A DNA stretch of 64,000 nt from an uncultured Planctomycetota bacterium (GTDB taxonomy: Bacteria; Planctomycetota; Planctomycetia; Isosphaerales; Isosphaeraceae), in the NCBI GenBank assembly GCA_963743925.1, contig CAVURY010000050.1, positions 14,358 through 78,357 on the forward strand, in the 5' to 3' direction. The position numbers were made by a program, and so were the translations under genes. The notes beneath the pieces are model-generated. The model was not told the DNA's origin. It made no database searches and worked only from the letters and a program-made list of their open reading frames with translations. Shown in pieces: positions 2,101 to 23,931 of this stretch (position 1 is the stretch's first letter; each line of letters opens with the position of its first letter).

Positions 2101-3565
<1,465 letters not shown>

Positions 3566-3594
<29 letters not shown>

Positions 3595-6500
3595 TCAGTA
3601 ACGCCCGAGCCAGGATCGTCCAGGCCGCTCGCTCGACGGCATCACCGTCGCCGGGACCGGCGAGCCTGGCGGCATCCAGCTCCTTGCGCCCGAGCCGATC
3701 TCTCTGAGCTCGATAGAACTTGACGAGCATGGCCAGCTCGTCGGATCCGGGCTGTCGTGAGAGGCATCGCTGGAACAGGACCGCGGCCCGGTCGTCGACG
3801 GTTCCTCCACGGATGCTTATCATACGCCCGAGCGATTGTGCGGCCTCCTCGAAGACCGGATCGTTGAGCATCGTGAGAGCCTGGAGCGGCGTGTCGGAGA
3901 CCTCCCTCCGCGCGACGCAAACCTCGCCGCTGGGCGCATCGAAGGTCGTGAACATCGCGTAAGGAGCGGTGCGTTTGGTGTAGGTGTAAAGGCCGCGGCG
4001 ATAGGCGTCGCCGCCGTCGCTGGTCTTCCACACCAGGCCACCGTACGCTCCGTCGGTCGTGACGCCGGGGGGTTGCGGAGGGAAGACGCTCGGCCCGCCG
4101 ATCTTCTCCGAGAGCAGGTTGCTGACCCTGAGCGCGGAATCCCGGACCATCTCCGCCTCCAATCGGACGCGAGGGCCTCGCGCCAGCAGTCGGTTCTCCG
4201 GATCCTTCGCCTGTAATTCCGGCGTGACCCGCGACGACTGCCGGTATGTCGCACTCGTGACGATCCTGCGGTGCATCGACTTCAACGACCAGTCATCCTC
4301 GACCAGGCGGGTCGCCAACCAATCGAGTAGCTCGGGGTGAGTGGGAGGCTCGCCTTGATAACCGAAGTCCTCCAGGGTACGCACCAATCCCCTGCCGAAG
4401 AATGCGGCCCACTGCCGGTTCGCGGTCACGCGGCCGGTCAGCGGATTCTGGGACGACACCAGCCATCGGGCCAACTCCAACCGGTTCGCCTGTGAGTCCT
4501 TGGGCAAGGGCGGTAGGAACGAGGGCACGCCCGGCTCGACCCGCTCGGTTGCCTCGAGGAATTCGCCGCGGTTGTGGATGAAAGTCGGCCTGGGATTGGC
4601 CGGCTCGCGCTCGGTCATCACCAGCGTGGTCCGATACGGGGGTAGCTCCTTCCGGAGCCGTTCGATCTCCGCGCGCTCCCTGGCCAGGTCGGGCGCCACG
4701 CTGAGATAGTACCGGCGAAGCTCGTCGACCTGCTCGGGGGTCCGCTTCTCCATCGGGACCGGGACGAGCCGCTCAATCTCGGTTGGGATCGATCGGGCCT
4801 CGATCGGCCGAGGGTCCGCGGTGACCGAGATCCGGAAACGCCCGAGCCCGGCGGCGTGATAGCGATCGAAGAGGAGCTCAATGCCCAGTTCGTTCGCGGC
4901 CCGTAGTGGACCCTCGATGCGGAACACGGCCTGATGCGGCCTCCCCTGCCCTCCGTTGATCGTCCAGCCAGACTGGGGATCGCCGTCAATCGCGAGGGTC
5001 GCCGACTTGGCGTCGGGCCAGCTCGACGTGGCTCCGGCGAATCGGATCGACTTGCCATCGACCGTCGCCCGGACTTCGCTGAGGAAGAAATCGCCCGCCG
5101 GTCCCTCGTAATAGACCCGGCCCGGCCCATGATTGGGCAACCGATCGTCGGGCAGCACCTCGAGCCGGATCGCGGTGATCCCTGCCGGGACGTTGCGAAA
5201 TTGGAGCGTGTACAGATCGCGCTTGCTCTGGTCGCCGCTGACAAAGATCGACCCATCGTGCTGGATGGCCAGGTGCGGCAGATTCGAGCTCGCCTTGACC
5301 GGCGTGAGCGGGGTCCATCGCGCCGTCTCGCTCGCTTGACGAGTCAGCCAGTCGCGAAATCGGGCCTCGAGATTCTGCTTTCGCCTCTCCTTCTCGGGGC
5401 GAGCATCGCCGCTTGCGGGCGGATCGACGGGGAATCGATCGGGGAGCTCGGCGATCAATTTCGCGATCCGGGCTTCGATCTCGCGACGACGTTGGGCGAT
5501 TTCCGGCGACGGCACCTCGAGCTCTGGCTCTTCGGTGTTATTCATCATCGCCATGAATCGGTAATACTCGCGGTGTGGGATGGGGTCGTACTTGTGCGTA
5601 TGACACTGGACGCAACCCATCGTGAGACCAAGCCAGACCGTGGCCGTGGTCGCCACCCGATCCGTCATGGCATAGAAGCGGTATTCGAGCGGGTCGATGC
5701 CACCTTCTTCGTTGAGCATCGTGTTCCGATGGAACCCGGTCGCGATCCTTTGCTCGAGCGTCGCGCCCGGCAACAGATCGCCGGCGATCTGGTCGATCGT
5801 GAAACGCCGGAAGGGGAGATCGGCGTTCAGCGCCCGGATCACCCAATCTCGATACGGCCAGATCGAGCGTGCTCGGTCCTTCTCATATCCGTTCGTGTCG
5901 GCGTAACGCGCCAGGTCGAGCCATCGCCGTGCCCATCGCTCGCCATATCGAGGCGAGGCGAACAGGCGATCCACCAGACGCTCGTAGGCGTCCGGGGAAC
6001 GGTCCTGGACGAACGCTTCGACCTCCTCGGGGGTCGGTGGCAGCCCCAGCAAATCGAGGGTCGCGCGGCGGATCAGCGAGACCCGATCGGCTTCGGGCGA
6101 AGGCCGTAACCCGGCCGCCTCCAAGCGAGCCAGTACGAACGCGTCGATCGGATTGCGAGGCCAGCCACGGTCGGATACGGCGGGCGTTGCCGGACGGACC
6201 GGCTTCTCGAAAGCCCAGTGCACTTCGTACTTCGCACCCTCGGCGATCCATCGCTTGAGGATTTGCCGATCGCGTTCCGAGACGGGCAACTTGGCTTGCG
6301 GAGGAGGCATGAGTTCGCCCTGATCCTCGGAGAAGATCCGGCTCACCATCTCACTCTCGTCGGGCTGGCCCGGGACTATGGGGCTCATCCCGGAGTCCGC
6401 AGCCTTCAGGGCGTCGTCGGGCCGGTCCAGCCGGAGATGAGCCTTCCGGGACTTGTCGTCCGGCCCATGACACTTGAAGCAATGCCGGGCGAGGATCGGG

Positions 6501-6613
6501 CGAACGTCGCGATTGAAGCTGAGTTGCCCTTCGGCGGTGGAACCGGCCTCGGCTGTCGGAAATCCGAGAGCGAGCCCGATCAACGCGATGAGGCTTGTGG
6601 CTCGACGTACCAA
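3566..6613 (-). CDS. PSD1-type protein: planctomycete cytochrome c domain + DUF1549 + DUF1553
   Basis: Contains a [19 protein letters not shown] haem-like motif, then the long DUF1549/DUF1553-type body, including [12 protein letters not shown]. Start set at TTG 6613 ([23 protein letters not shown] signal peptide, GGGAGG 8 nt upstream). The ORF is open up to 6781. It pairs with DUF1501, the classic arrangement. Confidence 0.85.
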
Positions 6614-7166
6614 GGGGGTCACCTCCCGGTGTTGCCGTCGTGCATGGAGTGTCGTGGAGGAATGGGTAGGCGGGGTTGGATCGCCTTCAGCAGCAATCGG
6701 AGGCGATCCATCGGATGGTGCATGTTGAACAGGATCGGTGGAGAATCTCACCACGGTGGGCGGGGAAACGCACGGCTGCAAAGCGCTTGCATCGGGTTGG
6801 AATGGAGCCCGGAATTTCCGCGCGTGAACCGCCCTCGCACGGCATATTGGCTACGCACGCGAGATTCCCTTGAATCTAGAGTAAGGACATTCGCCCTGAG
6901 TTTCAAGATGATGAACCGGCAGCAGCGACGGTCCTATTCCCTTCGATCGCCCCGACAATCGACCGGTCGATGGACGGTGAGGCAAGCCATCTCGCCCGAT
7001 CTCGAATCGGGTCGGAGACAGCGGAGCGACGCCGAAACGGGGCGATCAACGCATTCTGCTTGAGACCGAGACGATACCAACCCGAAGCGTCGGCGATCAT
7101 CCGAGGGAATATTCCTCGCTCGGGCTTCGGGTCGGTTTGGGTGGGCTCAATCCGGGCGCGAGGCGC

Positions 7167-8276
7167 TCAAGCCTTTCCCTTCGACGGGTTCAACAAGACG
7201 GCATACACCGTGCTGTCCTGCGGGTTCGTGGAGACCGCCTCGGCGGCGATCTGTCCCTTGTCGTTGATGGCTGTGGCACTGATGATGGTAAGACCCGAGT
7301 CGGCCGGTATCAACGTATTGAGGTCGGTCATGACTCCGTGGTTGTAGAGGAACGCATGTTGAACGGAGTTGCTCGTTTGTGAGCTACCGACCACCGCTCC
7401 GCTGTCGTTGATCGCGGCCGCAGCCGCCGACGAGCCTCCGAGTGTCCCGATGTCGGCCATGGCTCCGTGGCTGAACAGGAACGCGTGGCTGGCACCACTT
7501 GTGGTGTAAGAGATGCCGACCGCGGCGCCGTGGATATTGATGCTATCCGCCTCGGCGAAGGTGCCGCCGAGCGTCCCCAGGTCGGTCATCTTCCCGTGGT
7601 TGTAGAGGAAGGCGTGCGTGATGGTCGCCGAGCCCGTTCCCGATGTCACGGAGTATCCAACAACCTGCCCCTTGGCGTTCAGGGCCAGGGCCCCGGAACC
7701 CTGCCCTCCCAGCGAACCCAGGTCGATCAGCTTCCCGTGCTGCTGGATCGCCGCGTCCCCGTTGGCCAGAGTAAATCCGATGATCGATCCATGGTCATTG
7801 ATGGCGATGTTGCCCCCGGTGTTGAGGCCGGTATTCAGGGTCCCGATACTCGTCATCGATCCGTGCTTGTACAGGAAAATCTCGGGCTGAGCATTGTTGG
7901 CGGCGGCCGTCGAGACCCCGACGACGGCGCCCTGATCATCGATCCCCAATGCCTCGGCGGATGAACCACCCAGGGTGCCAAGGTCCGTGGTGACACCATG
8001 CATGGCGATGAACGCGTGCTCTGCCGCGTCGTTCGCCGTGTAGGAGACACCGACGACCGCCCCTCGGCTGTTCATGGACAGCGGGATGCTGAACGTACCC
8101 CCGAGCGAGCCCAGGTTGGTTACCGAATAACTCAGGACCCGACGATCTTCCAGGTGTTCGAGTCCGGGCCGTTGCGCGGTGCGGCGGCGCGTCGCTCCTT
8201 GGCGGATCCCGCGTGCTGTACGGCGGTGCCGGAGCCCCGACTGGAGACGCCGAATCCACGACGGTTGTGCGAACAT
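7167..8276 (-). CDS. Secreted HAF-family repeat protein
   Basis: About 7 degenerate repeats of HAF(L/I)y.hG.mtDLGTLGG..s.A.aIN..G.VVG. The Arg-rich N-terminus ends in LEHLEDRRVLS. Confidence 0.8.
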   Translation of the reverse strand: MFAQPSWIRRLQSGLRHRRTARGIRQGATRRRTAQRPGLEHLEDRRVLSYSVTNLGSLGGTFSIPLSMNSRGAVVGVSYTANDAAEHAFIAMHGVTTDLGTLGGSSAEALGIDDQGAVVGVSTAAANNAQPEIFLYKHGSMTSIGTLNTGLNTGGNIAINDHGSIIGFTLANGDAAIQQHGKLIDLGSLGGQGSGALALNAKGQVVGYSVTSGTGSATITHAFLYNHGKMTDLGTLGGTFAEADSINIHGAAVGISYTTSGASHAFLFSHGAMADIGTLGGSSAAAAAINDSGAVVGSSQTSNSVQHAFLYNHGVMTDLNTLIPADSGLTIISATAINDKGQIAAEAVSTNPQDSTVYAVLLNPSKGKA

Positions 8277-8368: not shown

Positions 8369-10294
8369 TCAACGGTCGTGCACGCGGATGAAGTGGTCGG
8401 TGAAGGATGAGTGTGGGACCACGCCTTTGACGGATGGCATGTGACACCCTATGCAACCCGAAGTCGGATTCACGGGGCAAGTCGTGTGTGCCGAAACATT
8501 GGTCGTTTCATCCCTCGTCTCCCCGGTCGCCGAAGTCCGCGGCTTCTTGGCGCCCGAATGGCACGACAGGCACCTGGATTCATAGTACGTCGGCGAGGTC
8601 GAGGCGTTGCGATGCGGGTTGTGGCACGTCGTACAATCGAGGGTGTCATTGCTCTCGGTATAGCAACGGCTCCAGGTCAGCGTCGTTCCCTGAAATCGGA
8701 CGGCCCCGGGATCGTCTCGCAAGACTTCCTGCCCGCGAGGGCTGTGGCACTCGGCACAGATTTTCATCACGCGCGAGCCAGAGGTCAGGCTCGGCCGGCC
8801 GATCGCCGCGTCGATCGCGGTCAACTTGGCGTCGGCGGCAAGCAAGTGATTGCCGGCGGGCCCGTGACATTTCTCGCAGCCGATGCCCCGGTCCGCCGCA
8901 CACGCTCCGGACCGATCCAGGATGGCCTTCGGGTCGGTGACGTGGCAGGACAGGCATCGCCGAACCGCATCTTCGGTCAGCGGCTGGCCGAGGAACTCCT
9001 CCGCCTTCGGCGGAATTCGAGGGTGTCCCGCCGTCACATCCCAGCACGCGTCAGGGCCGTCGGGATAGTCGGAGAGTCGCAGCTCGTAGGCTTTCCCTTT
9101 CTCGTTGCGACCCACCAGCGTCAACCCGCGATCGCCCGACCCGAACGCGTACTGGACGACGGCGTCGAGGACCTGGCCGTTGACCCGAGTCTCCAGGTTG
9201 ATTCGCGAGTCGGCTTTGCGTCGGAGTTCGTGCTCGACCTTGCGATCCGCCGGGTCCGAGACCGTCGAGCCGGGCAAGACCAGACCGCCGAGCTCGGAAG
9301 CGCGGAAGAACGTGCGGGCATGCCGCGAGACCTGCTGGGCCTTGGATTCCGCGGGGTGGCATTCGCCGCAGCGCGACGAGCCGACATACGGCGACGGATC
9401 CGGTACCTGTGGATTCTCGTCCCGGAACCCGCTCCCCTTCTTCAAAGCCTCGCGTGCCTCATTCCAGGCCCCTTCCTGGAGAGCGGCGCGGCTCAAGAGC
9501 CAGTAGGCCTCGGGATCGGGCGAATCTCCCAGTACGATGGCCAGTTGATCGCGAGCCTCTCGCGGTCGCGCGACTCGCAGCAAGGCATGGGCCAGCTCCT
9601 TTCGGGGGACGATCGGACTGGGAACCCCCTCGAGGCGCACCTCCTTGCGGCCCAGGGCCCGCTGCCAGAATTCGACGGCACCGGCGGGATCGTTGCGCTC
9701 GAGCTGGATCATGCCGAGGATCGCCTCGGCCCGCGATTCCCATCCCGGCCGGGTCGCCAGAATGCCGGCCAGCGCGGCTGCGGGGTCGAGTCGGTCGTTC
9801 GCGAAATAGGCACGAGTCAGCTCGAAGAGCGTCTCGGAGTGCTCCGGGTCGAGCGACCGGGCGCGCTCCCAGACCTCGGTCGCGGACTTGGTCTTCCCGG
9901 CCCGTGTCATGGCGAGCCCCAGGAGATACAGGTCCTCGGCCTCCATGGCGGACGGCCCGATTCGCTGGTAGAGTCCCGTCGCCGAGGAGTCGCGTCCCAG
10001 CCGGACGGACGCCCGCGCCAGGAGTCGTACCCCATCGAGATCCTCGCTGGCGGCCTTGAGCCGCAGGCGAGCGAGGTTGGCCGCCGTCTCCCAGTCGCCG
10101 AGGGAATAGGCCGCCCGGCCCCGGCTCAACGAATCCGAGCGAGGTCCGTACCGCCACCAACCGAAGCCCCCCGCCAGGAGCGTGGCTCCCAGCAGGATCG
10201 ACGGGATCAACCATCGCCATCGGCCTCGCGTCCCCGGTTGCGGCATTGTATCTCTTGAGTGGTCGGTGGCCAGTCGTTTTGAACCGATCGCCAC
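8369..10294 (-). CDS. TM-anchored TPR protein fused to a heptahaem c-type cytochrome module
   Basis: N-terminal TM helix (WRWLIPSILLGATLLAGGFGWW) and TPR-like helical repeats. Seven CXXCH motifs in the C-terminal half: CGECH, CLSCH, CEKCH, CAECH, CTTCH, CLSCH, CIGCH. Confidence 0.85.
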   Translation of the reverse strand: MAIGSKRLATDHSRDTMPQPGTRGRWRWLIPSILLGATLLAGGFGWWRYGPRSDSLSRGRAAYSLGDWETAANLARLRLKAASEDLDGVRLLARASVRLGRDSSATGLYQRIGPSAMEAEDLYLLGLAMTRAGKTKSATEVWERARSLDPEHSETLFELTRAYFANDRLDPAAALAGILATRPGWESRAEAILGMIQLERNDPAGAVEFWQRALGRKEVRLEGVPSPIVPRKELAHALLRVARPREARDQLAIVLGDSPDPEAYWLLSRAALQEGAWNEAREALKKGSGFRDENPQVPDPSPYVGSSRCGECHPAESKAQQVSRHARTFFRASELGGLVLPGSTVSDPADRKVEHELRRKADSRINLETRVNGQVLDAVVQYAFGSGDRGLTLVGRNEKGKAYELRLSDYPDGPDACWDVTAGHPRIPPKAEEFLGQPLTEDAVRRCLSCHVTDPKAILDRSGACAADRGIGCEKCHGPAGNHLLAADAKLTAIDAAIGRPSLTSGSRVMKICAECHSPRGQEVLRDDPGAVRFQGTTLTWSRCYTESNDTLDCTTCHNPHRNASTSPTYYESRCLSCHSGAKKPRTSATGETRDETTNVSAHTTCPVNPTSGCIGCHMPSVKGVVPHSSFTDHFIRVHDR

Positions 10295-10297
10295 ACC

Positions 10298-11680
10298 TCA
10301 AAGAGAGGCGGCGACGCGGTTCCATCCTTCCGCGACGCGAGACCAGCCCAGAGTCTCGCAGATGGAAGCCAGCCGTTTGACGGCCGCTCGCAATTTCGGA
10401 CCGGGGCCGGCCCCCGGACTCGACGCCTCGGCCAGGGCGAGTCGATACTCCGCGTCGGCTTGCCGCAACTGCGTCTGCGCGTCGCGCAGCGCCTGCCAAC
10501 GCTTGCGGTGCGCGGCGGACTGCTCGCGGAGACCGAGGCGATCCTCGACGATGGCGAGCCGATACTGGGCGTTGAGCAGGTTCGGGTTTCGCTCGAGGGC
10601 TTGACGATAATTCTCGGCGGCGCCCGGCCAGTCGCTTTCCCGTTCCCGGGACTGTCCTCGAAACATCCAGATCTCGGGCTCGATCTCGGCTGCCGCCGGC
10701 ACGCGGGCGAGTGCCTCGTTGAAGGCGTCCAGCTCGCCCAGCGATTGAAGCATGGTCAGGTAGTCCCGCCAGACACGCGGATCATCCGGACGACCCTTGA
10801 GGCAGGCTTGCATGTGCCGGAGCGCCTCGGCGCCTTGGCCGAGCGACAGCTCGGCATTGGCCATGGCGCGGAGCGCCTCGAAATCCTCGGGATCGGCGGC
10901 GACATAGTTCTTCAACAGCTCGACCGATACGGTGGGAGCCATGCGTTCCAGCTCGCATCGCATCCGCATCGACAGCACCATCGGTCGGTCTTCGGGGCTG
11001 CCGCGATCGTACTCCTTCCAGAGGATCACGTGTGCGTCATCCCATCGGTCTTCCATGGCGTAGAGCTTGAGTAGTTCCTGACTGGCGTCGTGGAAGACGG
11101 CCGGATCCGGAGGATGGAGCGGATCGGAATCGATGACGGCCAAGAGCGCCGACTCGGCTTCTCGGGCCCGGTTAAGCATCAGATACGCCTGGGCTTCGCG
11201 ATAGAGCGTCTCGGCCTTCTTCGGCCACCAGAACGGGACCTCGTGCAATTCTTTGGCACACCCCAGGAGGTCGCCGCGGGCGGCCAGCGCTCGAGCCAGG
11301 GTCATGCGAATCTCGCCGTCGTGCGGCGCGCGCCGCAACCGTTCCCGCAAGGCCGCCTCGGCCTGAGTGAATTGCTGCCGGGCGATCAATCCCTCGATGG
11401 TGCGGAGGTCGGCGACCGGACGAGTATCACGCCAGTACCACCAGGCGTTGAACCCGAGTAAGCCCGCAATCGTTGCTGCGGTGAAGAGAATTCGGAGCCC
11501 CGCGAGATGTTTTCGACGCGCCGGCGCAACCGGGGAGGCCTTCGGTTTATCCTCGGATTCAGCCGTCGCTTCAGGGAGCACAATCGTGGCGGCAGCGTCG
11601 GAATCGGTCAGCATGGTCGATTCATTGCGAAGGACCGGGGCAGGTCCGATGTCTTCGGGCTGGCAGTTCGCGACACGCAT
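10298..11680 (-). CDS. TM-anchored TPR repeat protein
   Basis: 460-aa ORF with one TM helix (LRILFTAATIAGLLGFNAWWYW) followed by TPR-like repeats. Its stop lies 3 nt from the downstream start. Confidence 0.75.
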   Translation of the reverse strand: MRVANCQPEDIGPAPVLRNESTMLTDSDAAATIVLPEATAESEDKPKASPVAPARRKHLAGLRILFTAATIAGLLGFNAWWYWRDTRPVADLRTIEGLIARQQFTQAEAALRERLRRAPHDGEIRMTLARALAARGDLLGCAKELHEVPFWWPKKAETLYREAQAYLMLNRAREAESALLAVIDSDPLHPPDPAVFHDASQELLKLYAMEDRWDDAHVILWKEYDRGSPEDRPMVLSMRMRCELERMAPTVSVELLKNYVAADPEDFEALRAMANAELSLGQGAEALRHMQACLKGRPDDPRVWRDYLTMLQSLGELDAFNEALARVPAAAEIEPEIWMFRGQSRERESDWPGAAENYRQALERNPNLLNAQYRLAIVEDRLGLREQSAAHRKRWQALRDAQTQLRQADAEYRLALAEASSPGAGPGPKLRAAVKRLASICETLGWSRVAEGWNRVAASL

Positions 11681-11686
11681 TCCATG

Positions 11687-12937
11687 TTACTTGAGCCGAC
11701 CGAGGGCTGCCAGGCTGATCGCATCCTCCGGAGCGTCGCGGAGGACCAGGCGATGCCAGGCGAGCGCCTCGTCGGGCCGGCCCATCCGCTCTCGCAGGTC
11801 GGCCAGTCTATGGTAAAGATCGGGATGAGGGGCCAGGCCGAGGGTCCGGACCGCCACGGCCTCGTTATAAACCCCGCGCATCCGCTTGAAGGCATCCTGA
11901 AACGATTCGTAAGCCCGATTCACGCGATCGAACTCGGACATTTCCCCGGCCTGGCGGAGTGCGGCACGGAATCGATAAGCGAGGACCCCGTTGTAGGGTT
12001 CCAAAGCGGTCGCGCGGCGATACGCCCGGACCGCCCTCCGCCAATCGCGGGCGTTTTCCGCGATCATCCCCTCGTGCTTGGCGAACCGGGGATCGTCGGC
12101 GAACGTCCGGGGCAACTTCGCGTATTCCTCGGCGAACCGATCGAACTCGTAGGCGCCATAGAGCCCGAAAAGCCAGGCGTCCCACGCTTCGGGCGATTCG
12201 GAATGCCTCTTGAGCGTCCTCTCGAGGACATCGACCCCCTGTGCGCCACGACTGTCGCGGACCAATGAGAGTCCCACGGTGATGGCCAGTGGCAGGTTAT
12301 CGGGCAGCTGTCCGACCAAGGGCTCGAACAACTGGACCTGCGAACCCGGCGAGACCTGATCGATGTCCAGCCGCGACATCTCGAGGAGAATCCGGACACG
12401 ATCGCGAGGATCCGGCTCGACCTGGTGCAGGCGCATGCCGATCCGATGGGCTTCCTCGATCCGCCCCTCCTTGTCGAGCAGGTCGATCAGCGACCAGGCC
12501 GCTTCCGGGACGGCGGGATCCAGGCGGAGGGCCTCCAGCCACGAAGACTCCGCCAGGTCGTAACGACCCTTCTGATAGTTGGCCTTCCCCTCGAAGAAGC
12601 GGAGAAGCGCAGCCTCCTTGGGATCTCTCGGGGGGATCGCGGCGAGATGTTCCAGCGCCAATTCCGGGCTCGGATCGGGCGGCTCCGTGGCGAGTTGTGC
12701 CATCAGGAGATGAGCACGCGTGTCTCCCGGATTGGCCCGAAAGTAGTCTTCCAAGAGCGTGCGTGCCCGCTCGAACTTGCGTTCCCGCGCCAGCGCACGG
12801 ATCTCGTCCAGGTTCGGAAAATTTGTCCTCACGCGGCGGACCGCCAGGGCGCCGCCCACGAGCAAGACCGCGGTCAGCATCACGACCACATAGGGCGTCC
12901 GGCGCGCCCGCGACGCGTCATGCAATTCGAGCTTCAT
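11687..12937 (-). CDS. TM-anchored TPR repeat protein
   Basis: 416-aa ORF with one TM helix (YVVVMLTAVLLVGGALAV) followed by TPR-like repeats. There is a 6-nt gap to the downstream gene. Confidence 0.75.
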   Translation of the reverse strand: MKLELHDASRARRTPYVVVMLTAVLLVGGALAVRRVRTNFPNLDEIRALARERKFERARTLLEDYFRANPGDTRAHLLMAQLATEPPDPSPELALEHLAAIPPRDPKEAALLRFFEGKANYQKGRYDLAESSWLEALRLDPAVPEAAWSLIDLLDKEGRIEEAHRIGMRLHQVEPDPRDRVRILLEMSRLDIDQVSPGSQVQLFEPLVGQLPDNLPLAITVGLSLVRDSRGAQGVDVLERTLKRHSESPEAWDAWLFGLYGAYEFDRFAEEYAKLPRTFADDPRFAKHEGMIAENARDWRRAVRAYRRATALEPYNGVLAYRFRAALRQAGEMSEFDRVNRAYESFQDAFKRMRGVYNEAVAVRTLGLAPHPDLYHRLADLRERMGRPDEALAWHRLVLRDAPEDAISLAALGRLK

Positions 12938-13031
12938 CTCAAGACGGCCATCGAGTTGTACAACCCGTCACCCGGCGCTCGTCCACCGTCACTCCGCTTT
13001 TTAGGTTGACGAATCGAAACGCCATCGCCCC

Positions 13032-15458
13032 TCACAACGCGGCCTTTCGAGCAGGATTCTCCGTCGTCTCGCTCGCAGCCGGCGGTCTCTGAGGATTCTG
13101 GTGAATGGCCTTATACGAACCGGTCCCCTCGGTGATCACGATCAACTGGCTGGAGGCTACGTTTTCGAAGACCTGGCTAGTTCCGCTCGTCGGCCAGGTG
13201 ATCGTCAGACGAGCGATCGAGGATGCGCTCCCCATACCGATCATTTCCGTAAGCGGGTTGCCTCCGAAGCTGCCGTTATTCCCGACGACCCGATGAATCG
13301 ATCGCGATGACCCATCAGGCCCCTTCAGATCGGCCTGAATTCGGGCGCCGATCGCGGAACGATTGGTCCGGGTGCCCACCAGTTTGACCTTGAGCCAGTG
13401 TTGGCCATGACCGGGGTTCTGGAATAACACATTATAAGCCTGGTCCCCCGGAACGCCACCACCGAGCACGGCGAAAAGGTCGAGATCGCCGTCAGAATCC
13501 CAATCGGCGAAGGAGATGCCATGGCCCTTTTGAAGGTGCCCCGTCCGAGATGAGGCAGTGATATCTTCGAATCGCCGCCCCTCGATGTTCTTGACCATGA
13601 CATTCGGGACCAGTCCCGAAAACGACATCTCGCCGGTGCCGAAATAGGCATCGAGGTAGCCGTCATTATCGATGTCGCCGAAATTCGCCCCCATCGCCAG
13701 GATCGGGGCGGTCAAGCCAACCTCCTGACTGACCTCGCGGAAGCCTTGCGGGCCGAGGTTCCGATAGAGGTGGGGGTGGCCCGGGTCGTCCCGCCCCTGA
13801 ACGCCGAGATAATTGGCGACGACATCGGCGACGATCGCATGGTAATCGTTGACGAGGAGATCAAGACGCCCGTCGTTGTCGTAGTCCCAGAACCAGCATG
13901 CGAACGAGCGTTGGTGCGTCGGGCCGGTCACCCCCAGCGCCTTGGCCACGTCGCGAAACCGTCCCCCTCCTTCGTTATGGTAGAGCAAGCATGGCCCATC
14001 CAGGACCGACACGAAGAGATCCAGCCGGCCATCACCGTCGTAGTCGCCCCAGGCCGATCCCTTGGACACCCCATCGCCGGCGATCCCCGCCTCGACCGCG
14101 ACGTCCTTGAAAGTACCGTCGTGCTGGTTGTGGTAGAGCCGTCGGCGCTCGCGAGGTTTGGGATCGTCCGCGTGGGTCTCGCCGCAGACGAACAGGTCGA
14201 GCCAGCCGTCGTTGTCATAGTCGCCCCAGACGGCCGATTCGCTGGAGATCGGCTCGCCCAGCCCGCTGGCGAGCGTGACGTCCTCGAACACGCCACCCCC
14301 TTTATTACGCAACAGCGAGAGCCGAGCCGGCTTCTCCCAGGCCCCGCGCAGCAACACCACGTCGGGATTACCGTCGTTGTCGTAATCGCCGCGGGCGAGG
14401 TTCAGGGCGTAGATCTGCGCGTCGAGTCCCGCTCGCGCCGAGGAATCGTCGAACGTCCCATCACCCCGGTTGAGGAAGAGAGAAGCCCCCCGATCGACGT
14501 CGATCGACGTCGTGAACAGGTCGGGGAGGTCGTCGCCGTTGAAGTCGTCGAAGATGCTCCCTCCCGCGAGGTTCGGCCCCCGGACGCCCAGTCCCACCGC
14601 CGGCGCCACGTTCTCGAACGCACCGACGTCCAGCTTCGAAGCGAATCCTCCGATCGGGACGAGGTATTCGCGCGGGACCCCATTCGGGTACTCTCCCAGA
14701 GTCATGTAGGCGAGGTTCAATAGCCAGCGGAATCGGAGGTCGCCCGGCGACCACTTCAGGTACTCCGAGAACTGCCGGATCGCCTCGCGAGAGCCGTCCT
14801 GCTGGATGTGGACCGCGCGAGGATCGATCGGGAAAATACAACTTGACGGGCCGAGACACTCCAGGCAATTCTCGACCTCACCGCGCCTCAACGCGGCCAG
14901 CCCCAGCAAGGCGTGGAACTCGGCCTGGGCCTCCGCCGGGAATTTGTGCTGATGGCTCATCTCCAGGGCCCGCTTCAGCCACGATTCCGCCTGGCCGAAA
15001 TCCCCTTCGTGCATGTAGAAGAAGGCGACCGAGCGGGCCAGCGGGACCGCCTCGAGCGCTTGCTCGAAAGTCGGACGTGAGCCTATGCGCAGCTTATCGT
15101 AGGTCTCTCTCAGGGCGGCGATCCCTCGTCGTCCCCGAACTCGGATCGCCTCTCGCAAGTCCCCGAGCGAGCTGGGGTCCTTGATGGTCCCCTTATACGA
15201 GAACGCATAGACGCTGATAAATCTGTCCAGTGGGCGCCGGTCGATGCAAATCTGGGACGCCGTTCCGGGAGCGTTGGGGTCGGGATACCAGGAGACGAGC
15301 GGGCTCTCCATCTGCGAGTTGGATGCCGGAAGAGCGCCCCCTTGAGATAACGCGGCGATCCGCAGCCAATCCGTGCCGCCGGTCACCCACGAGACTGCCC
15401 CGATCGCGATCCCCACGCAGAGCAGCCCCGCGAACAAGACCCTGAATGCTCGCCTCAT
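13032..15458 (-). CDS. CRTAC1-family protein (N-terminal TPR, FG-GAP/VCBS repeats, ASPIC/UnbV-type C-terminus)
   Basis: 808-aa ORF with a signal/TM segment (MRRAFRVLFAGLLCVGIAIGAV). Carries repeated calcium-binding-like motifs (GDYDNDGNPDVVL, WGDYDNDGWLDLFV, WGDYDGDGRLDLFV, WDYDNDGRLDLLV, GDIDNDGYLDAYF, ADWDSDGDLDLF). The tail ...NRSAIGARI...VGNNGSFGGNPL is typical of UnbV/ASPIC. Confidence 0.85.
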   Translation of the reverse strand: MRRAFRVLFAGLLCVGIAIGAVSWVTGGTDWLRIAALSQGGALPASNSQMESPLVSWYPDPNAPGTASQICIDRRPLDRFISVYAFSYKGTIKDPSSLGDLREAIRVRGRRGIAALRETYDKLRIGSRPTFEQALEAVPLARSVAFFYMHEGDFGQAESWLKRALEMSHQHKFPAEAQAEFHALLGLAALRRGEVENCLECLGPSSCIFPIDPRAVHIQQDGSREAIRQFSEYLKWSPGDLRFRWLLNLAYMTLGEYPNGVPREYLVPIGGFASKLDVGAFENVAPAVGLGVRGPNLAGGSIFDDFNGDDLPDLFTTSIDVDRGASLFLNRGDGTFDDSSARAGLDAQIYALNLARGDYDNDGNPDVVLLRGAWEKPARLSLLRNKGGGVFEDVTLASGLGEPISSESAVWGDYDNDGWLDLFVCGETHADDPKPRERRRLYHNQHDGTFKDVAVEAGIAGDGVSKGSAWGDYDGDGRLDLFVSVLDGPCLLYHNEGGGRFRDVAKALGVTGPTHQRSFACWFWDYDNDGRLDLLVNDYHAIVADVVANYLGVQGRDDPGHPHLYRNLGPQGFREVSQEVGLTAPILAMGANFGDIDNDGYLDAYFGTGEMSFSGLVPNVMVKNIEGRRFEDITASSRTGHLQKGHGISFADWDSDGDLDLFAVLGGGVPGDQAYNVLFQNPGHGQHWLKVKLVGTRTNRSAIGARIQADLKGPDGSSRSIHRVVGNNGSFGGNPLTEMIGMGSASSIARLTITWPTSGTSQVFENVASSQLIVITEGTGSYKAIHQNPQRPPAASETTENPARKAAL

Positions 15459-15887
15459 CTCCTATCCCCCTCCCGGATTGACCATCGATTCTGGAAAGGC
15501 TCTCCGGCGCGGTGGACTCGAGGAGTTCCGGGGGAGCGTCCCTATCACGCAAACCACGAGCCGGGAACGACGTAGAGAAGGCATAATCCGTTCGTGAAGT
15601 CATCCGAACACTCAAGTTTGACAAATGTAAAACTAAATTCTTGGCCTTTACCTCAATTATCTAGCGTCACATCTCCTGCGTACGGCCTGGCTAAGCTCGA
15701 AAAATTCGTGAATAGTCGGCGTCGTCGCGCGGCCTCCGATCCGTTGGTTGCTGAAGGCGAGCGGATCGAGGGCGAGGGAGCTTGGGAGCTTGTCTGGCTA
15801 TTGTCCGCGGTCGCGAAAAGCTCTATCTTGAACCAGGAACTGCGAGCTCTTCTCGCCTCGAGCATCTCGGAAGGATTGATCGACTCG

Positions 15888-17201
15888 ATGGTCCCAGCCA
15901 TGTCACCTGCCGCGGTCCATACTCGTCGACGGTGGTTGTGGCTCCTGGGGATTCTGCCGCTCGCCGCCGGCTGCATCATCGCGGGGCTCTCGATGCGGCG
16001 GAACCGCCTGGTCGAGCGCGATGCGGAACTCGCCCGGCAGGCGATGGCTTCCGGTCAACTGGAGGAGGCTTCCACGGAGCTGGAGCGCTGGTTGAACGGG
16101 TCACCGGGGTCGGGAGAGGCGCATTATCTCAAGGCCCGGATCGCCTGGGCCCGTGGCGAACTCTCGACCGTCCACGACGAGCTCACTCGGGCGATTTCGC
16201 TGCGATGTCCGAGGCATCTCTGGACCGGACTCCAGGGTCTGATCCTGGTCCGAGCCAACCAGTCGACCGAGGCCGAGCCGCTTCTGCGCGAGGCCTTCGA
16301 ACAGAGTGACCGGACGGATCCGGAGGTCGCCGACGCCCTGGCCCGGATCTATCTCGGATCGTATCGCTTGTCGGAGGCGGGCGTGATCCTCGACCGTTGG
16401 TCGCGCGACGTGCCTGGGGATGCGCGTCCGTACCTCCTACGACCCGAGATCGACACTCGGATGAAGAAAGAGCCCGAACAGATCATCGCGAGTTACCGAG
16501 CGGCATTGGAGCGCGATCCGGGGCTGGATCGGGCCCGGCTCGGCCTGGCCGACCAGCTTCGCATCTATCACCACAATGCCGAGGCCGCGGCCGAATACGC
16601 GAACTATCTCGCTCGCAAGCCCGATGATCTGCTGGGGTCGATCGGGGCGGGACAGAATGCCCTCGAGATGGGAGATGAGCGGGAGGCGATCCGCTCGCTC
16701 GATCATGCCCTCAAGATCGCGCCCGAGGATCCCGTTGCGCTGGGTGCCCGGGCCTCCGTCGAGACCCGGCGAAACCGCTTCGAGTCGGCGCTTTCCTACC
16801 TCGATCGTGCCATGAGAGCGGACCCGTTCGACTACGTCAATCGATCTCAGCGCATGTGGATCCTGGCACGGCTGGGGAGGAAGAGCGAGGCCGATGCCGA
16901 GCGCAAGGCCGTGGAGCGAATCCGGAGCGATCAGGAGGAGTTCGCCCGGATCCACCGCGCCCTCCGGGACTCACCCGGCGACCTGATACTCCGCGGCGAG
17001 GCGGCTCACTGGCTCATGCTGCACGGCCACGAAACCGAAGCGATCGAGTGGGCCAACCTGGTCCTTCGAGCCGAGCCGGCCCATCCCGCCATGAATCGAC
17101 TGCTCGCCGACCACTATCGCAAGAAGGGCCAGCCGGGCCTCGCCAAGTTTTATGAGACCCATGCCGCATCGCCCTCCGAGCAACCCTCGACGAACCCGTG
17201 A
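15888..17201 (+). CDS. TM-anchored TPR repeat protein
   Basis: Internal ATG of ORF 15594..17201, chosen because 15594-15887 is AT-richer and non-protein-like. TM helix WLWLLGILPLAAGCIIAGL followed by TPR-like repeats. Confidence 0.7.
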   Translation: MVPAMSPAAVHTRRRWLWLLGILPLAAGCIIAGLSMRRNRLVERDAELARQAMASGQLEEASTELERWLNGSPGSGEAHYLKARIAWARGELSTVHDELTRAISLRCPRHLWTGLQGLILVRANQSTEAEPLLREAFEQSDRTDPEVADALARIYLGSYRLSEAGVILDRWSRDVPGDARPYLLRPEIDTRMKKEPEQIIASYRAALERDPGLDRARLGLADQLRIYHHNAEAAAEYANYLARKPDDLLGSIGAGQNALEMGDEREAIRSLDHALKIAPEDPVALGARASVETRRNRFESALSYLDRAMRADPFDYVNRSQRMWILARLGRKSEADAERKAVERIRSDQEEFARIHRALRDSPGDLILRGEAAHWLMLHGHETEAIEWANLVLRAEPAHPAMNRLLADHYRKKGQPGLAKFYETHAASPSEQPSTNP

Positions 17202-18605: not shown

Positions 18606-19754
18606 TCAAAGGGCGTCCGAAGAAACGACTTCGCCGTTGTCCGGGGTCGCGATCGCATACCAGCTTACGTAGTTCACCGAGCTCTTGATGAACCGGACCG
18701 AGCCGTCCATGAACAGCACGTTCACGCCGCCCGGGTGGTTCGAGCTGGGATTGACGCCGGTGATCGTCGCACGGCTGTCCTGATAGGCATTGGCGTAATC
18801 GCACGCGTAGCGATTGGGCGTGTTGGTGTGCGAATAGGTGGACGTGCCGCCGTAGGCCCACCACTCACCCTTCCAGCTCCAGTTCTGCTGGGTCGGGTCC
18901 TGGAAATTGACCTGGCACGCCTGGAGGAACTGGAAATCGGTCCCGTAGGTCGCCACCTGGGCCTTGCCCGAGAAGTAATAGACCATGCCGAGGCCGTTCT
19001 TGGCGCCGGGGACGCCCTGGGCCGGTCCCTTGACCCACTCGCTGAAGATCGCCGTGGTGCTGGTGCCGTCGGTGAAGGAGTTGATGTTGATCTGGCGATG
19101 CCCGATGGCACCGTCCCAGCTCGACAGGACATAGCCGGGCCCATTCTCGATCCAGTTTCCGCTCGAGCCATTACCGCCCGTCGCGCCATTAATCCGACGG
19201 TTCAGGCCGATGTTGGATGGATAATTGAGGGCACCCACCAGTTTGTTGCCCGTGGGGAAGGCGTAGGTTCCCGACGAGCCGGGAGCCTGATCCGATGGGC
19301 AGAGGAAGCTCGAGATCTGCATGCACAACACGGTGTACTGGACCATGCTGTAGCTGCCGCCGGAAGCACCATCCGGGGGATTACTGTCGGCGGGGATGGC
19401 GTAATTGTCGCTCCAGCGGGCACCATAGTTCATGTTCAACGCGTTATACGCGGTTTGCTGCTCGAGGTATGGGAGCAACCGAGCATGCGCGGAGAAATTC
19501 TGGTGTGGCTGCTGGAGGGCATTGTTATTCTGGTCCCACTGCGGGTCGGTGTTATTCGGAGGCACGGAGGTCTGGGCGCTCACATAATTGTGCATCGCCA
19601 GGCCGATCTGCTTCAGATTGTTCGTACACTGCGACCGCCGAGCCGCTTCCCGTGCCGACTGCACGGCGGGCAAGAGCAGGGCGATCAGGACCGCGATGAT
19701 GGCGATGACCACGAGCAGTTCGATCAGGGTAAATCCCCGACGATTGCGGATCAT
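18606..19754 (-). CDS. DUF1559 protein with prepilin-type N-terminal cleavage/methylation domain
   Basis: N-terminus [57 protein letters not shown]. The C-terminal ...[17 protein letters not shown] is the H-X9-DG motif. Confidence 0.9.
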
Positions 19755-19890
19755 GAAATGTCTCCCTCCAAAAATACGGTAAGAAAACGTAAAAAAACCG
19801 AGATTCAGTGGCGCAAGATGGAATAGGTTACGAAGCAACCATGCATCCCGGCCCTATGTTTGAATCGCCGACCGTTCGCCTGCTCGAGGC

Positions 19891-20148
19891 TCACTTCTTC
19901 GCGCCGGGATATTTCGAGTCCTTGGCGTATGGGTTGGGAGCCGCCTGCTTCTGCTTTGCGTAGTCGTCGTAGGTGGGAGTGGGGGCCCCGGCTTCGACCT
20001 TCTTGTCCTTGGGGTTGGGCTCTCCCGGGCTTCCGACGGACTTCTGAATCTTCTCGGCCTCCGTCTCATTGTCAGTCCCGCAGCCCGTCGCTCCAACTAA
20101 GGACAGGCCAAGAAGCGCCAAACTCACGCCCTGTGTGAACCGCTTCAC
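19891..20148 (-). CDS. Small lipoprotein
   Basis: GTG start with GGAGAG 9 nt upstream. Lipobox in VKRFTQGVSLALLGLSLVGATGC, followed by a low-complexity Lys/Pro-rich tail. Confidence 0.6.
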   Translation of the reverse strand: MKRFTQGVSLALLGLSLVGATGCGTDNETEAEKIQKSVGSPGEPNPKDKKVEAGAPTPTYDDYAKQKQAAPNPYAKDSKYPGAKK

Positions 20149-21048
20149 GAGTATCGCTCTCCAATGGTGAACTTCGTAAGGATGAAGGAACCGAACCATC
20201 GATTTCTGGTGTGTAAACCCTCGGATTGGACGCGAGCAAGTCCGCCGTTCATCCCGGTGACTACCATGGCTCGGGCTACGCCGGGCGCGAAAAGCCTATT
20301 ACAACGGAGCGTCACGACCGCGACGACCGGCCGAGATTTCATGACGCCCATCAAATTTAGATAGCCATGAATATGAATGTACGAAATCCCGGTACGGCAC
20401 AACCACGCAATCGCTTCGGTGGAGTTTGAAGGCATGCGACATCGCTTGACCCAATTGCGGCCGCCTCATGCCCCACTGACTTCGCAATACGACGTTGCCT
20501 CAGCCTCACCAAAACGGTCAACCCGACGCACGAAATGGGTCTAACAACCAGGACGTTCGGCCGCCACGGACTCAGGCGACTCCCTCTTGGATCTGCTTAC
20601 TGAGAACGACCCTGGCTCACTCGGCAAATCGAAGGGGACGCGAAAGACGCGAAAAGCCAAACGTTGCCGGCTGATTATGACCGTCCAAGAGTTGGCTCGA
20701 GGAAAAAACCTCCCAGACCGCCCTAACCTTATACGCTACTCCACTCTCGTGTCAAGAGAGTGCCAGGCATTTCGATATCTCCGAATATCTTAGTGGCTGC
20801 CGAACCGTCGCTTTCATTCACGGAACGGATGAGTGACCCATTACCCTCGGCAACGAGCGTGCCGAAGACTAACTAACCTTGTCCAAGAACTTCCCGAGTC
20901 AGAGTTAGGTGCATGAACTGAAGCAATCCAGCCCGTTCTAAGAGTATTGAATTCCTTCCTTGCTTTACCATTAGACGTTTCGGAATTCGTTTGAACTGGC
21001 AGAAGAACGCCATCCTTCGGCTACCGGAGGAGAAATTCAGTCTTAAAA

Positions 21049-21255
21049 ACGAGGTGGAGCTACGCCTTCTGGCTCAGAAATGCGAGCTCTGGGGACGTGG
21101 GAGCCTGTCAGGCCTACCATGTCCGCAAGCTGGCGGATTTGAACTGACCGGGCCAGAGCGAGAAGCCGCCATGGGTCGAGCGAATGGCTTCCCGACCCCG
21201 TAAGACTCTGGTCGTCCGTAAAGAGTGCCACGAGGCCTTGCATCGAGAACGACCC
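21049..21255 (+). pseudogene. Decayed C-terminal (HNH/En zinc-finger) remnant of a group II intron reverse transcriptase/maturase
   Basis: Two frames together read ...ELRLLAQKCELWGRGSLS / AYHVRKLADLN*PGQSEKPPWVERMASRPRKTLVVRKECHEALHRERP. This matches, from memory, the bacterial IEP ending C.LCG...VHH.RKLADL..PG..P.W...M..R.RKTLV.C..CH..IH. It carries a frameshift, an in-frame stop and two lost Cys ligands (C->W, C->R). Confidence 0.6.
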
Positions 21256-21683
21256 AGGCGGCACCGGTTCAAGAAATGGACCACTTGCGAGTTACTCGAG
21301 ATCGAAAGACTTACGAACGCTTGTGAGGAGTCGGATGGAAAAGGACGCAGACGGTTGCCCGTCACTGCCGTTGCATTACGGGCTCACGAACCCCGCACAA
21401 GACTTAGTTCGCCAGCCCCCTGCTCTGTCTCACGTCCAGTTCTGATGGGGCAGGGAAGCAGAAATGCTTCCCCGCCACCCGACTACCCACGATCCATGAC
21501 TGAGCGATCGTTCTTGGTACAAGCGTTCCCGTCATGGACGGCGCGTTTGTCCCTGACACTGATTTCCGCCGATCTCCCGGATGTCGATTCCCATGCGGTC
21601 AGTTCCGTCGGGCGGCTCTTTGATCAAGAGTGGTGCGATTGCTGGATGGGAGCGGCTTCAACCTTTGGCGCAGCGAATACCCC

Positions 21684-23510
21684 TCAGCGACTCTGTTCGC
21701 GATCGAAGAGCTCATCTAGACGCCGCCGCGCGTCTACATGGCCGGGAGCGAGGCGCAGTGCTTCGGTGAACTCCTTGGCTGCCTCGTCGCTCAGTCCCAT
21801 CAGCGCGAGCACGGTGCCAAGACTGACACGAGCCTCGGCGTTTCGGGGTTGGCATCGAACTGCCTCGAGAAGCTGGTACCCAGCCTCTTTGAGCCGTCCT
21901 ATTTTGAGGAGCACCATCCCCAAGTCGTAGTGGGGCTCGAACCGATTCGGTTCGAGCCGAGCCGCGCTCGCGAACTGGGCGATCGCTCCATTGGGGTCGC
22001 CTTGTTTGAGGAGAGCGAGGCCGAGATTTCCACGGGCGTCAACGTTGTTCGGGTCGATCCGAATCGCCTTGTGAAGGTGGGTAAACCCCTCCTTAACATG
22101 GCCGGCAAACACCAGGTCAACGCCAAGATCACTCTCCAGGATGGCGTCACGTCCGGTGCCTATCCGCAGGGCATGCACCCTCAGAGTGTTCGAGTCCCGC
22201 CAAGTCTGGCACTGGGTCCAGCTTAACGTTATTAGAACTCCGACGAGACCGAGCACCGCCGCACAGACTGCTAGAGCGACGGCCCTTGGCCGCCGCGATC
22301 CCGCGATAGCACCAGCTAGCCCCACAGCCACTACCAGATGGAGCGGCATCGTCGCGATGTAGCTGTAGCGATCCGCCACGAGCATGGAGCCATACGAGAT
22401 CAGCCCGCTATTTGGTGTCAGTAGGATCGCGTAGGCCAGCAGCGCCGCCACGATGGCCGGTTGTCGTCGTCGCTGCCGGTAGGCCGCGACGCCCAAGGCC
22501 GTCGCCATCGCGAGGCTCGCCACAAATCGAGGTTCGAACGGGTCAACCGGGTCAGGCCGAAAGTTGTAGGCCGACAAGTCGCTCGGCCAGACCGTCTTCC
22601 GAAGATAATAAACCAGCCCGTACCCTCCCACGGCAACGCGTTCGACGGTCAAACGCGCCGGTCCCGGACGATAATCGGTCAACCTGGGAGGGTCTGTCTT
22701 CGCCCTGACGGCGATTAACGCCACGGCGGTCGCGAGGACGACGTAAGGGAGCTTCTCGACACTGACCCGAAGCACCGATCGCCCCGCACCCGAGCGATTG
22801 AGCACCGAGAAATCCAGGATCACCAGAACTAACGGCAGCCCCACGGGCACCGCCTTGGAGCCGAGCGCCGCGGCGAACAGCACGACCGAGGCGGACAACC
22901 AAGCCAGCCGCCGTCGGTTGTCCTGCCAACCGCGCAGGTAAGTGAGCACTGCCATCAGACTGAAGCCTGCGCAGGGCAAGTATGGCTGACACGACGCCCA
23001 CGCTACGACCTCGACCCGAAGCGGATGTACGGCGAACAACGCCGCAGCCAAGCCTGACGTCAAGGAGATGGCCCACGAACGCCCGGCCTGGATTTCAGGC
23101 AGGGACCGGGAAACGAGGGTTCGGATCAGGAAGTAGAACAAAACGGCATTGATCGCATGCAGTGCGAGACTCGCCAGGTGATAACCCTTGGGGTTGAGTC
23201 CCCAGGCGAGGTATTCGGTCTCCAGGAGGATCCAGGCGAGGGGCTGATAAGCGCCTTGCAAGACGGTCGTGCAGGCCCACCGTATTTGCGACCAACCCAA
23301 GCCCCGAAAGTTCGGGTTTTGGAGAAAGTTGGTTTGGTCGTCCCAATGCTCGGCAAAGCCATTCGAGAGAACCGGTATGAAGGCGACGAGCGACAGCAGC
23401 CCGACCGCAACCGCAACACCGCACTCAACGAAGTCCCAAGCCGGTCGGCGTGTCGATGCGTCGGCCTCAATCCCTCCTGGCATCGGGTCGGCCTGACAAC
23501 CCACCTTCAT
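21684..23510 (-). CDS. Polytopic membrane protein, TMTC/PMT-like (GT-C fold) with C-terminal TPR repeats
   Basis: Multiple TM helices. The N-terminal loop reads ...NGFAEHWDDQTNFLQNPNFRGLGWSQIRWA...YQPLAWILLETEYLAWGLNPKGYHLASLALHAINAVLFY. The C-terminal TPR block reads NLGLALLKQGDPNGAIAQFASAARLEPN.... Start set at MKVGCQ; the ORF is open to 23672. Confidence 0.7.
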   Translation of the reverse strand: MKVGCQADPMPGGIEADASTRRPAWDFVECGVAVAVGLLSLVAFIPVLSNGFAEHWDDQTNFLQNPNFRGLGWSQIRWACTTVLQGAYQPLAWILLETEYLAWGLNPKGYHLASLALHAINAVLFYFLIRTLVSRSLPEIQAGRSWAISLTSGLAAALFAVHPLRVEVVAWASCQPYLPCAGFSLMAVLTYLRGWQDNRRRLAWLSASVVLFAAALGSKAVPVGLPLVLVILDFSVLNRSGAGRSVLRVSVEKLPYVVLATAVALIAVRAKTDPPRLTDYRPGPARLTVERVAVGGYGLVYYLRKTVWPSDLSAYNFRPDPVDPFEPRFVASLAMATALGVAAYRQRRRQPAIVAALLAYAILLTPNSGLISYGSMLVADRYSYIATMPLHLVVAVGLAGAIAGSRRPRAVALAVCAAVLGLVGVLITLSWTQCQTWRDSNTLRVHALRIGTGRDAILESDLGVDLVFAGHVKEGFTHLHKAIRIDPNNVDARGNLGLALLKQGDPNGAIAQFASAARLEPNRFEPHYDLGMVLLKIGRLKEAGYQLLEAVRCQPRNAEARVSLGTVLALMGLSDEAAKEFTEALRLAPGHVDARRRLDELFDREQSR

Positions 23511-23871: not shown

Positions 23872-23931
23872 TGGCCCGACGGCCAGGAGAATCGAGAAAA
23901 AGTCTGCTATTCCCGACGACCGAATAAGTCT

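Follow-up and report, generated by a model that had tools for sequence, protein, structure and literature searches.

A recurrent heptahaem cytochrome, TPR and CRTAC1-like gene association in Isosphaerales: a candidate periplasmic redox module

The window analysed here is a whole stretch of 64,000 nt from an uncultured Isosphaeraceae bacterium (contig CAVURY010000050.1), and all positions are given in window coordinates. Its left part carries a cluster of minus-strand genes ending in D, a protein in which a transmembrane (TM) helix and tetratricopeptide repeats (TPR) precede a domain with seven CXXCH haem-binding motifs. Open reading frames (ORFs) and intergenic gaps were taken from an ORF table, and domains were assigned by Pfam and NCBIfam profile searches. 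The original prediction had singled out four minus-strand genes, A to D, separated by 94, 6 and 3 nt and followed 92 nt 3' of D by a HAF-repeat gene on the same strand. The ORF table matches this arrangement exactly, and profile hidden Markov model annotation bore out the domain calls for all four proteins. The features of the cluster, including those upstream of A, are listed in Table 1.

Table 1. Genes and subdivisions of the heptahaem cluster and its flanks, in window coordinates.
Feature	Position	Strand	Basis or remark
HAF-repeat gene	7167-8276	-	Pfam HAF_rpt E=3e-52
D, TM + TPR + heptahaem c-type cytochrome, 641-aa ORF	8369..10294	-	seven CXXCH, Pfam TPR
D, heptahaem domain	8372-9397	-	
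D, TPR superhelix	9416-10132	-	
D, TM helix	10157-10213	-	
C, TM + TPR protein, 460-aa ORF	10298..11680	-	Pfam TPR
B, TM + TPR protein, 416 aa	11687..12937	-	Pfam TPR, TM residues 15-33
A, CRTAC1-like protein, 808 aa	13032..15458	-	Pfam, match to PDB 9etn, Ca2+ motifs
A, UnbV_ASPIC	13143-13355		
A, seven-blade FG-GAP Ca2+ propeller	~13464-14576		
A, short TPR-like domain			CxxCx5C motif (CLECLGPSSC)
A, signal or anchor segment			
up535, divergent TM + TPR protein	15594..17201	+	Pfam TPR, TM residues 115-133
up388, TM + TPR protein, 388 aa	17364..18530	-	Pfam TPR families, one N-terminal hydrophobic segment
DUF1559 / prepilin-type N-terminal methylation-motif protein, 410 aa	18606..19838	-	Pfam SBP_bac_10 E=1.4e-43, N_methyl E=3e-9
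Small ORF, 102 aa, 5' of DUF1559 gene	19891..20199	-	similarity to small ORFs in relatives

A single N-terminal hydrophobic segment was found in every protein of the cluster (the DUF1559 protein, the four TM-TPR proteins including the divergent one, A and D), and all seven are predicted to project into the periplasm from this helix. As c-type haem is attached on the periplasmic side and the TPR domain of D lies between its anchor and the haem domain, D would be oriented N-in/C-out with its TPR domain in the periplasm. The true starts of up535 (near 15.89 kb) and of C probably lie downstream of the listed start codons, and alignment with homologues suggests that D probably begins at Met17 (coordinate 10246). 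A scan of 7-19 kb for promoters and terminators returned sites no more frequently than in shuffled sequence. No terminator-like site was detected in the A-D gaps, in a scan that performed no better than on shuffled sequence.

D contains exactly seven CXXCH motifs (residues 309, 447, 473, 513, 554, 575 and 614), which were conserved without exception in a set of 60 homologues and in one of 101 sequences; all 415 of the full-length family members retrieved also have exactly seven. No CXXCK or long-spacer (CX15CH) haem motif was found in D. In Pfam, D matched TPR families and, marginally, the generic multihaem families Cytochrome_C7, Cytochrom_c3_2 and Paired_CXXCH_1. The AlphaFold2 model (pLDDT 79.8, pTM 0.79) has a confident TPR superhelix over residues 55-293 and, in the haem domain, a six-stranded beta-sheet at residues 354-420 between haems 1 and 2.

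The haem domain also occurs in a short form of about 400 aa, made up of a TM helix and this domain. Across D-type and short-type proteins, the only universally conserved candidate haem ligands outside the CXXCH motifs are H325, H483, H561, H634 and M619, the last of which directly follows the final CXXCH in a CHMP motif. An invariant Cys pair, C544 and C606, and Tyr571 (99% conserved) are shared by both types (window ~8480-8665). C544/C606, M619 and Tyr571 could form a disulfide or unusual haem ligands. D-type proteins additionally possess near-invariant H355, H424, H628 and H639.

Foldseek searches with the full-length model of D retrieved TPR proteins only. With the haem domain modelled alone, the best match was OcwA (6i5b; E=7e-3, probability 0.98, TM-score 0.29), followed by MccA, and all matches were weak. 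Sequence profiles of the haem domain matched OmhA (6qvm; 4.8e-8), OcwA, a 333-aa chain of 6r2q, cytochrome c554 and NrfA, in each case weakly and largely at the level of the motifs. Neither Pfam nor NCBIfam holds a curated family for the TPR-heptahaem protein. The suggestion that the CXXCH module lies outside any characterised enzyme family and has no assigned pathway has thus far stood up: known enzymes gave only these motif-level matches, the two databases offered no curated family or pathway, and literature searches returned nothing. From the sequence and model comparisons, the haem domain is assigned to the broad NrfA/c554/OcwA-type multihaem superfamily, in which it forms an uncharacterised family.

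More specific assignments of D were rejected. A NapC/NirT-like quinol dehydrogenase scored far below the cut-off and over the haem motifs only; D has no Cytochrom_NNT match in Pfam, and 250 residues of TPR separate its helix from haem 1. The model for the MtrA/DmsE decahaem conduit reached 28.6 bits compared with a cut-off of 192, over the haem motifs only and in a protein with seven haems, and none of the annotated neighbours was porin-like. A match to a 'UshA-like selenoprotein' model was likewise far below cut-off and confined to the haem motifs.

The pattern of ligands and matches bears on whether D is an enzyme in its own right: a multihaem oxidoreductase of the NrfA, octahaem tetrathionate reductase (OTR), MccA or OcwA type that would convert a small substrate, inorganic or soluble, at a haem that is open or has unusual ligands, with the TPR and CRTAC1-like neighbours accessory or unrelated. 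Universal sixth-ligand candidates amount to four His and one Met for seven haems, and the invariant Cys pair and near-invariant Tyr571 offer possible unusual ligands; nevertheless, the four extra His of D-type proteins suffice for all-bis-His ligation, and all seven motifs are canonical CXXCH with neither a CXXCK nor a long spacer. Similarly, the best haem-domain matches are OcwA, OmhA, MccA, cytochrome c554 and NrfA, and the beta-sheet domain between haems 1 and 2 is conserved, but the matches are weak and largely motif-level. Nor would a catalytic D explain the recurrent fusions and adjacency that involve TPR and CRTAC1-like genes, as described below. We consider this explanation unlikely.

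A word-indexed search found more than 314 full-length homologues of D. In GTDB species genomes 566 stretches of the D family were confirmed, almost all in Isosphaeraceae/Isosphaerales, and one metagenome-assembled genome (MAG) has at least five copies. The haem domain alone is represented by 1217 sequences at 50% identity (E<=1e-30). For the short form, which NCBI labels 'multiheme c-type cytochrome', at least 3552 clusters at 90% identity were counted. Pairs of heptahaem and CRTAC1-like genes were also observed on contigs labelled as a Ca. Kuenenia stuttgartiensis MAG (L077; L numbers denote related loci) and as an Actinomycetota MAG (L082), the former also holding a DUF1559 gene. These labels outside Isosphaerales may indicate a wider distribution or mis-binning.

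The nearest relatives of the locus are L087, L004 and L007, with D orthologues 71, 67 and 53% identical, respectively. All three have the same order on one strand: a protein of ~960 aa, a small ORF, DUF1559, the up388 orthologue, B, C and D, with the sole deviation that L007 has a homologue of up535 (58% identical) between B and C. In these loci the DUF1559 orthologues (67-71% identical) keep the same position and the up388 orthologues (60-71%) lie directly 5' of those of B, which are syntenic and 65-71% identical, while the C orthologues (58-64%) lie directly 5' of those of D. The small ORF at 19891..20199 is ~34% identical to same-position ORFs in L087 and L004 and 36% in L007, and on this similarity it may belong to the syntenic block. 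B-C-D synteny was also found in L017, L058 and L072, of which the last two keep the order TPR-B-C-D. Homologues of up535 occur directly 3' of other D paralogues in L032, L051, L061, L062 and L064. The L032 locus belongs to Tundrisphaera lichenicola P12.

Compared with the nearest relatives, only the window has up535 and A between up388 and B, and the orthologous clusters of L087, L004, L017 and L007 have no A. In L088, a 99%-identical assembly that may come from the same population, the arrangement of the window is kept, A included. Gene order across these loci indicates that the conserved orthologous core is DUF1559, three TM-TPR proteins and the TPR-heptahaem protein D, and that A and the divergent up535 are a two-gene, lineage-specific insertion into the cluster. 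As a conserved unit the four genes A-B-C-D therefore did not survive the comparison, since the nearest orthologous loci have DUF1559-TM-TPR-B-C-D without A. The expected conservation of the neighbourhood held for B, C and D and failed for A, which outside the window stands at this position only in L088. The set was also too narrow, having missed DUF1559 and two more TM-TPR genes, up388 and up535, on the upstream side. DUF1559 and the additional TM-TPR proteins make the unit wider than first proposed, and it is looser in that the orthologous cluster does not include A and the HAF gene has no part in it.

L017 has the same core genes with a transposase-bearing segment between the up388 and B orthologues. 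The Tn5-type transposase gene itself (L017 5777-7174, plus strand; Tnp_DNA_bind, DDE_Tnp_1, Dimer_Tnp_Tn5) sits at the junction where the window has up535 and A. The region ~20300-26600 of the window has no counterpart in the syntenic relatives L087, L004 and L007. It encodes a 662-aa TPR protein (21684-23672), contains YfhO-like ORFs (23979-24989 and 24293-26248), and is taken to be rearranged because its homologues sit 3' of D in L017.

Protein A is the only CRTAC1-like gene product in the window. Pfam matched FG-GAP_3 (E=2.8e-45) over six stretches of A and UnbV_ASPIC (PF07593) with 41.5 bits compared with a cut-off of 23.4, together with weak TPR matches around residues 145-196. In a phmmer search, residues 346-772 aligned to residues 80-493 of the human CRTAC1 structure 9etn (E=1.6e-14), and A contains seven Dx[DN]x[DN]G..D calcium motifs. 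This match and the calcium motifs justify the label 'CRTAC1-like', and by sequence A is regarded as a true homologue of CRTAC1. Like vertebrate CRTAC1 and the bacterial 'CRTAC1 family'/ASPIC-UnbV proteins, A has an FG-GAP Ca2+ propeller and UnbV_ASPIC. It differs in having an N-terminal anchor together with a TPR/CxxC domain and in missing the EGF-like domain. We know of no member of the bacterial CRTAC1/ASPIC-UnbV family with a known function.

A redox centre in A was considered and rejected. The CxxCx5C motif ENCLECLGPSSCIFPI (residues 198-207; window ~14838-14867), located in the N-terminal TPR-like domain, is confined to a close subfamily: it is kept in L049, L071, L066 and two copies of L060, replaced or lost in L060 7467-9848, and absent from TPR-FG-GAP-UnbV proteins of ~1000 aa. 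Conservation among A-like proteins falls on structural residues (Gly, Asp, Asn and Phe), and no conserved Cys, His or Met was found across 17 of these proteins, which is evidence against a redox cofactor in the propeller.

The association of these protein types was assessed over 85 non-redundant loci, each centred on a D-family gene, with immediate neighbours defined as lying less than 500 bp away. A CRTAC1-like ORF was present within 10 kb at 32 of the 85 loci and was an immediate neighbour at 15; a free-standing TM-TPR gene was an immediate neighbour at 16. Taking 2 of 16 gene slots as adjacent under the null, the probability of such adjacency is ~2e-6 for CRTAC1-like and ~3e-7 for TM-TPR genes. 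Ten of 29 nearest CRTAC1-like genes lay within 300 bp. In L071, L060 and L066 the closest homologues of A itself (609-1001 bits) immediately adjoin other D paralogues, and a homologue of 1394 bits in L049 is ~4 kb from a D paralogue. The protein types also occur fused, as TPR-7haem in D, as 7haem-TPR in L011 (708 aa) and as TPR-FG-GAP-UnbV proteins of ~1000 aa in L010, L015 and L039.

DUF1559 joins the same arrangements. It directly adjoins a CRTAC1-like gene in seven loci, and in L010, L015, L031, L071 and L076 it lies directly 5' of that gene on the same strand. In L010, DUF1559, TPR-FG-GAP-UnbV and TPR-7haem follow one another consecutively on a single strand. L085 has the order [7haem][FG-GAP/UnbV][TPR][DUF1559], followed directly by a second [7haem][FG-GAP/UnbV] pair. 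The multihaem-TPR-propeller association proposed for this locus is also found beyond it, in recurrent adjacency and in fusions. In terms of gene content, the link between heptahaem, TPR and CRTAC1-like proteins is not a local accident, recurring as it does in many paralogous loci and in fusions. Nevertheless, the association is not obligatory.

These results also bear on whether A is incidental to the window, having come in together with up535 at a junction prone to rearrangement, so that the unit would consist of the DUF1559-TPR-TPR-TPR-heptahaem core only. The clusters of L087, L004 and L007 without A, the Tn5-type transposase of L017 at exactly the junction of A, and the 94-nt gap after A, much wider than those of 6 and 3 nt within B-C-D, are what such an arrival would predict. 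However, A-like genes adjoin D paralogues far above chance, the closest homologues of A elsewhere are also beside D-family genes, and the arrangement is kept in L088, though that may be the same population. An incidental A is accordingly a minority reading to which we give little credence.

B and C matched TPR families only in Pfam and NCBIfam, and they are paralogues (mutual match E=1e-17). B, C, D and both upstream TPR proteins gave sub-threshold matches to PF23914 (TPR_CcmH_CycH), at 18-28 bits compared with a cut-off of 42; no ccm, nrf or ccs genes were found in the cluster, and membership of the CcmI/NrfG chaperones was rejected on these two counts. That the free TM-TPR proteins (B, C and those upstream) are dedicated CcmI/CycH- or NrfG-like maturation or assembly chaperones of the heptahaem apoprotein, not subunits of a complex, is decidedly improbable: the TM helix with periplasmic TPR is the architecture of CcmI/CycH, the PF23914 matches recur in all five proteins and B, C and D are tightly linked, but many unrelated TPR families match equally well, the cluster has no ccm, nrf or ccs genes, it would be unusual for one cytochrome to have three to four chaperones, and TPR is also fused to CRTAC1-like proteins, which have no haem motif.

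The protein encoded at 18606-19838 combines N_methyl and SBP_bac_10 matches, as is characteristic of DUF1559 (H-X9-DG) prepilin-like proteins. A second DUF1559-like gene at 60643-61653 (minus strand; 120 bits to the first) shows the dense background of this family, which in Planctopirus limnophila is the largest paralogue family, with 68 copies, of which two are essential, and has no known function (PMC10632474). Only an orthologous, syntenic copy (>400 bits) and same-strand pairs of DUF1559 followed by an A-like gene were counted as meaningful.

No HAF-like ORF was found in any of 82 related loci, and the HAF-repeat gene was rejected as a component and is regarded as a neighbour for this reason. 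Just 3' of it on the same strand lies a typical planctomycete pair overlapping by 29 nt: a 1071-aa PSCyt1/PSCyt2/PSD1 protein (3566-6781), which holds the monohaem 'planctomycete cytochrome C' domain, and a DUF1501 protein (2101-3594; E=1.6e-156). The D paralogue in L002/L005 adjoins a 1718-aa PSCyt1+WD40 protein. Further along the window, an AcrB-type RND transporter is apparently split into overlapping minus-strand ORFs in different frames (30960-32837 and 32419-34281), next to an HlyD-type membrane-fusion gene (29575-30939). The first of these ORFs matches profile positions 459-1020 only, and the split may reflect a frameshift, a pseudogene or a fault in the assembly. Three consecutive large genes occupy 45652-54934 (minus strand), encoding a Ser/Thr kinase with C-terminal TPRs (1020 aa), a CopC/Big_5 protein (1130 aa) and a matrixin-type metalloprotease with Big_13 repeats (909 aa).

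Our preferred explanation is that the locus is one copy of a multi-paralogue Isosphaerales envelope module, a TPR-scaffolded periplasmic redox complex anchored in the cytoplasmic membrane. We put its probability at about 0.45, with topology, complex formation and the role in electron transfer being what we infer. In such a complex, the seven c-type haems of D would form a short electron-transfer chain. The TPR domains, within D and A and free in B, C and the two upstream proteins, would keep the cytochrome and its partners together in one complex. The CRTAC1-like Ca2+ propeller would be a partner- or ligand-binding component and not a redox enzyme, and the multiple paralogous copies per genome would probably serve different substrates or partners.

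Several observations weigh against this explanation. A is missing from the orthologous clusters of the nearest relatives, and 23 of the 85 D-family loci have no partner gene within 10 kb. Two short-form loci adjoin 2-oxoglutarate dehydrogenase genes instead. DUF1559 is present at 48 of the 85 loci, an enrichment that is only modest given the abundance of the family and that counts as weak evidence. Finally, five universal distal-ligand candidates for seven haems would allow a catalytic open haem.

A more elaborate version of the redox complex can be drawn, in which DUF1559 and several membrane-anchored TPR proteins form a periplasm-spanning scaffold that places the heptahaem 'wire' to exchange electrons with a substrate or partner held by the CRTAC1-like Ca2+ propeller, each paralogous copy being tuned to its substrate. 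This would be a previously unrecognised piece of planctomycetal envelope machinery; it is a speculative proposal, and we rate it as improbable.

Parts of the module have counterparts in known systems. Single N-terminal membrane helices followed by periplasmic multihaem domains are found in the NapC/NirT/NrfH/CymA quinol dehydrogenases, as in D, but these have four to five haems with haem 1 by the membrane, whereas D has the 250-residue TPR spacer. OcwA of Thermincola potens (6i5b) and OmhA (6qvm), terminal reductases of Gram-positive extracellular electron transfer, share with D haem-pair motifs of the 'GIxCExCHGPGxxH' type and belong to the NrfA/c554-related superfamily. They differ in having nine and eleven haems, respectively, compared with seven, in missing the TM-TPR front half and in acting at the cell surface of monoderm bacteria. 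MtrCAB-type conduits combine a decahaem protein with an outer-membrane porin, whereas D has seven haems and no porin-like gene among its annotated neighbours. Like B and C, the apocytochrome chaperones CcmI/CycH and NrfG consist of a TM helix and periplasmic TPR and are encoded beside a c-type cytochrome; the TM-TPR proteins here differ in giving only sub-threshold profile matches and in having no haem-lyase gene context. In Geobacter, where the export of cytochrome nanowires depends on a pseudopilus, the genes of multihaem cytochromes are linked to that of a pilin-like protein. The linkage in the module is similar, but DUF1559 is not PilA, and nothing here points to secretion or to cytochromes that form filaments.

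The nearest precedent is provided by hydrazine synthase (HZS)-like clusters of non-anammox bacteria, planctomycetes included, in which a CRTAC1-family FG-GAP gene lies between two haem-protein genes (PMC12758564). As here, a bacterial CRTAC1-family gene stands among periplasmic c-type haem genes, and no other published case of this kind was found. The haem proteins of those clusters are HZS alpha-like and beta-gamma/CCP-like, with 2 or 2+8 haems, and do not belong to the heptahaem family, and no TPR or DUF1559 is reported. Literature on a heptahaem-TPR-CRTAC1 module or on the heptahaem family was not found. Membrane-anchored periplasmic multihaem systems are already known; their association with TPR and CRTAC1-like propellers is apparently undescribed.

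The heptahaem family has more than 1000 representatives at 50% identity, for which no curated model, close structure or paper was found. If the scaffold, wire and propeller arrangement were true, DUF1559, bacterial CRTAC1/ASPIC-UnbV and the heptahaem family, all three of them large orphan families, would each gain a function for the first time. The network joining DUF1559, CRTAC1-like and heptahaem families to TPR scaffolds yields testable hypotheses on complex formation, haem content and redox partners, and could open up part of the poorly understood envelope of planctomycetes and its electron-transfer capacity in soils and peat.

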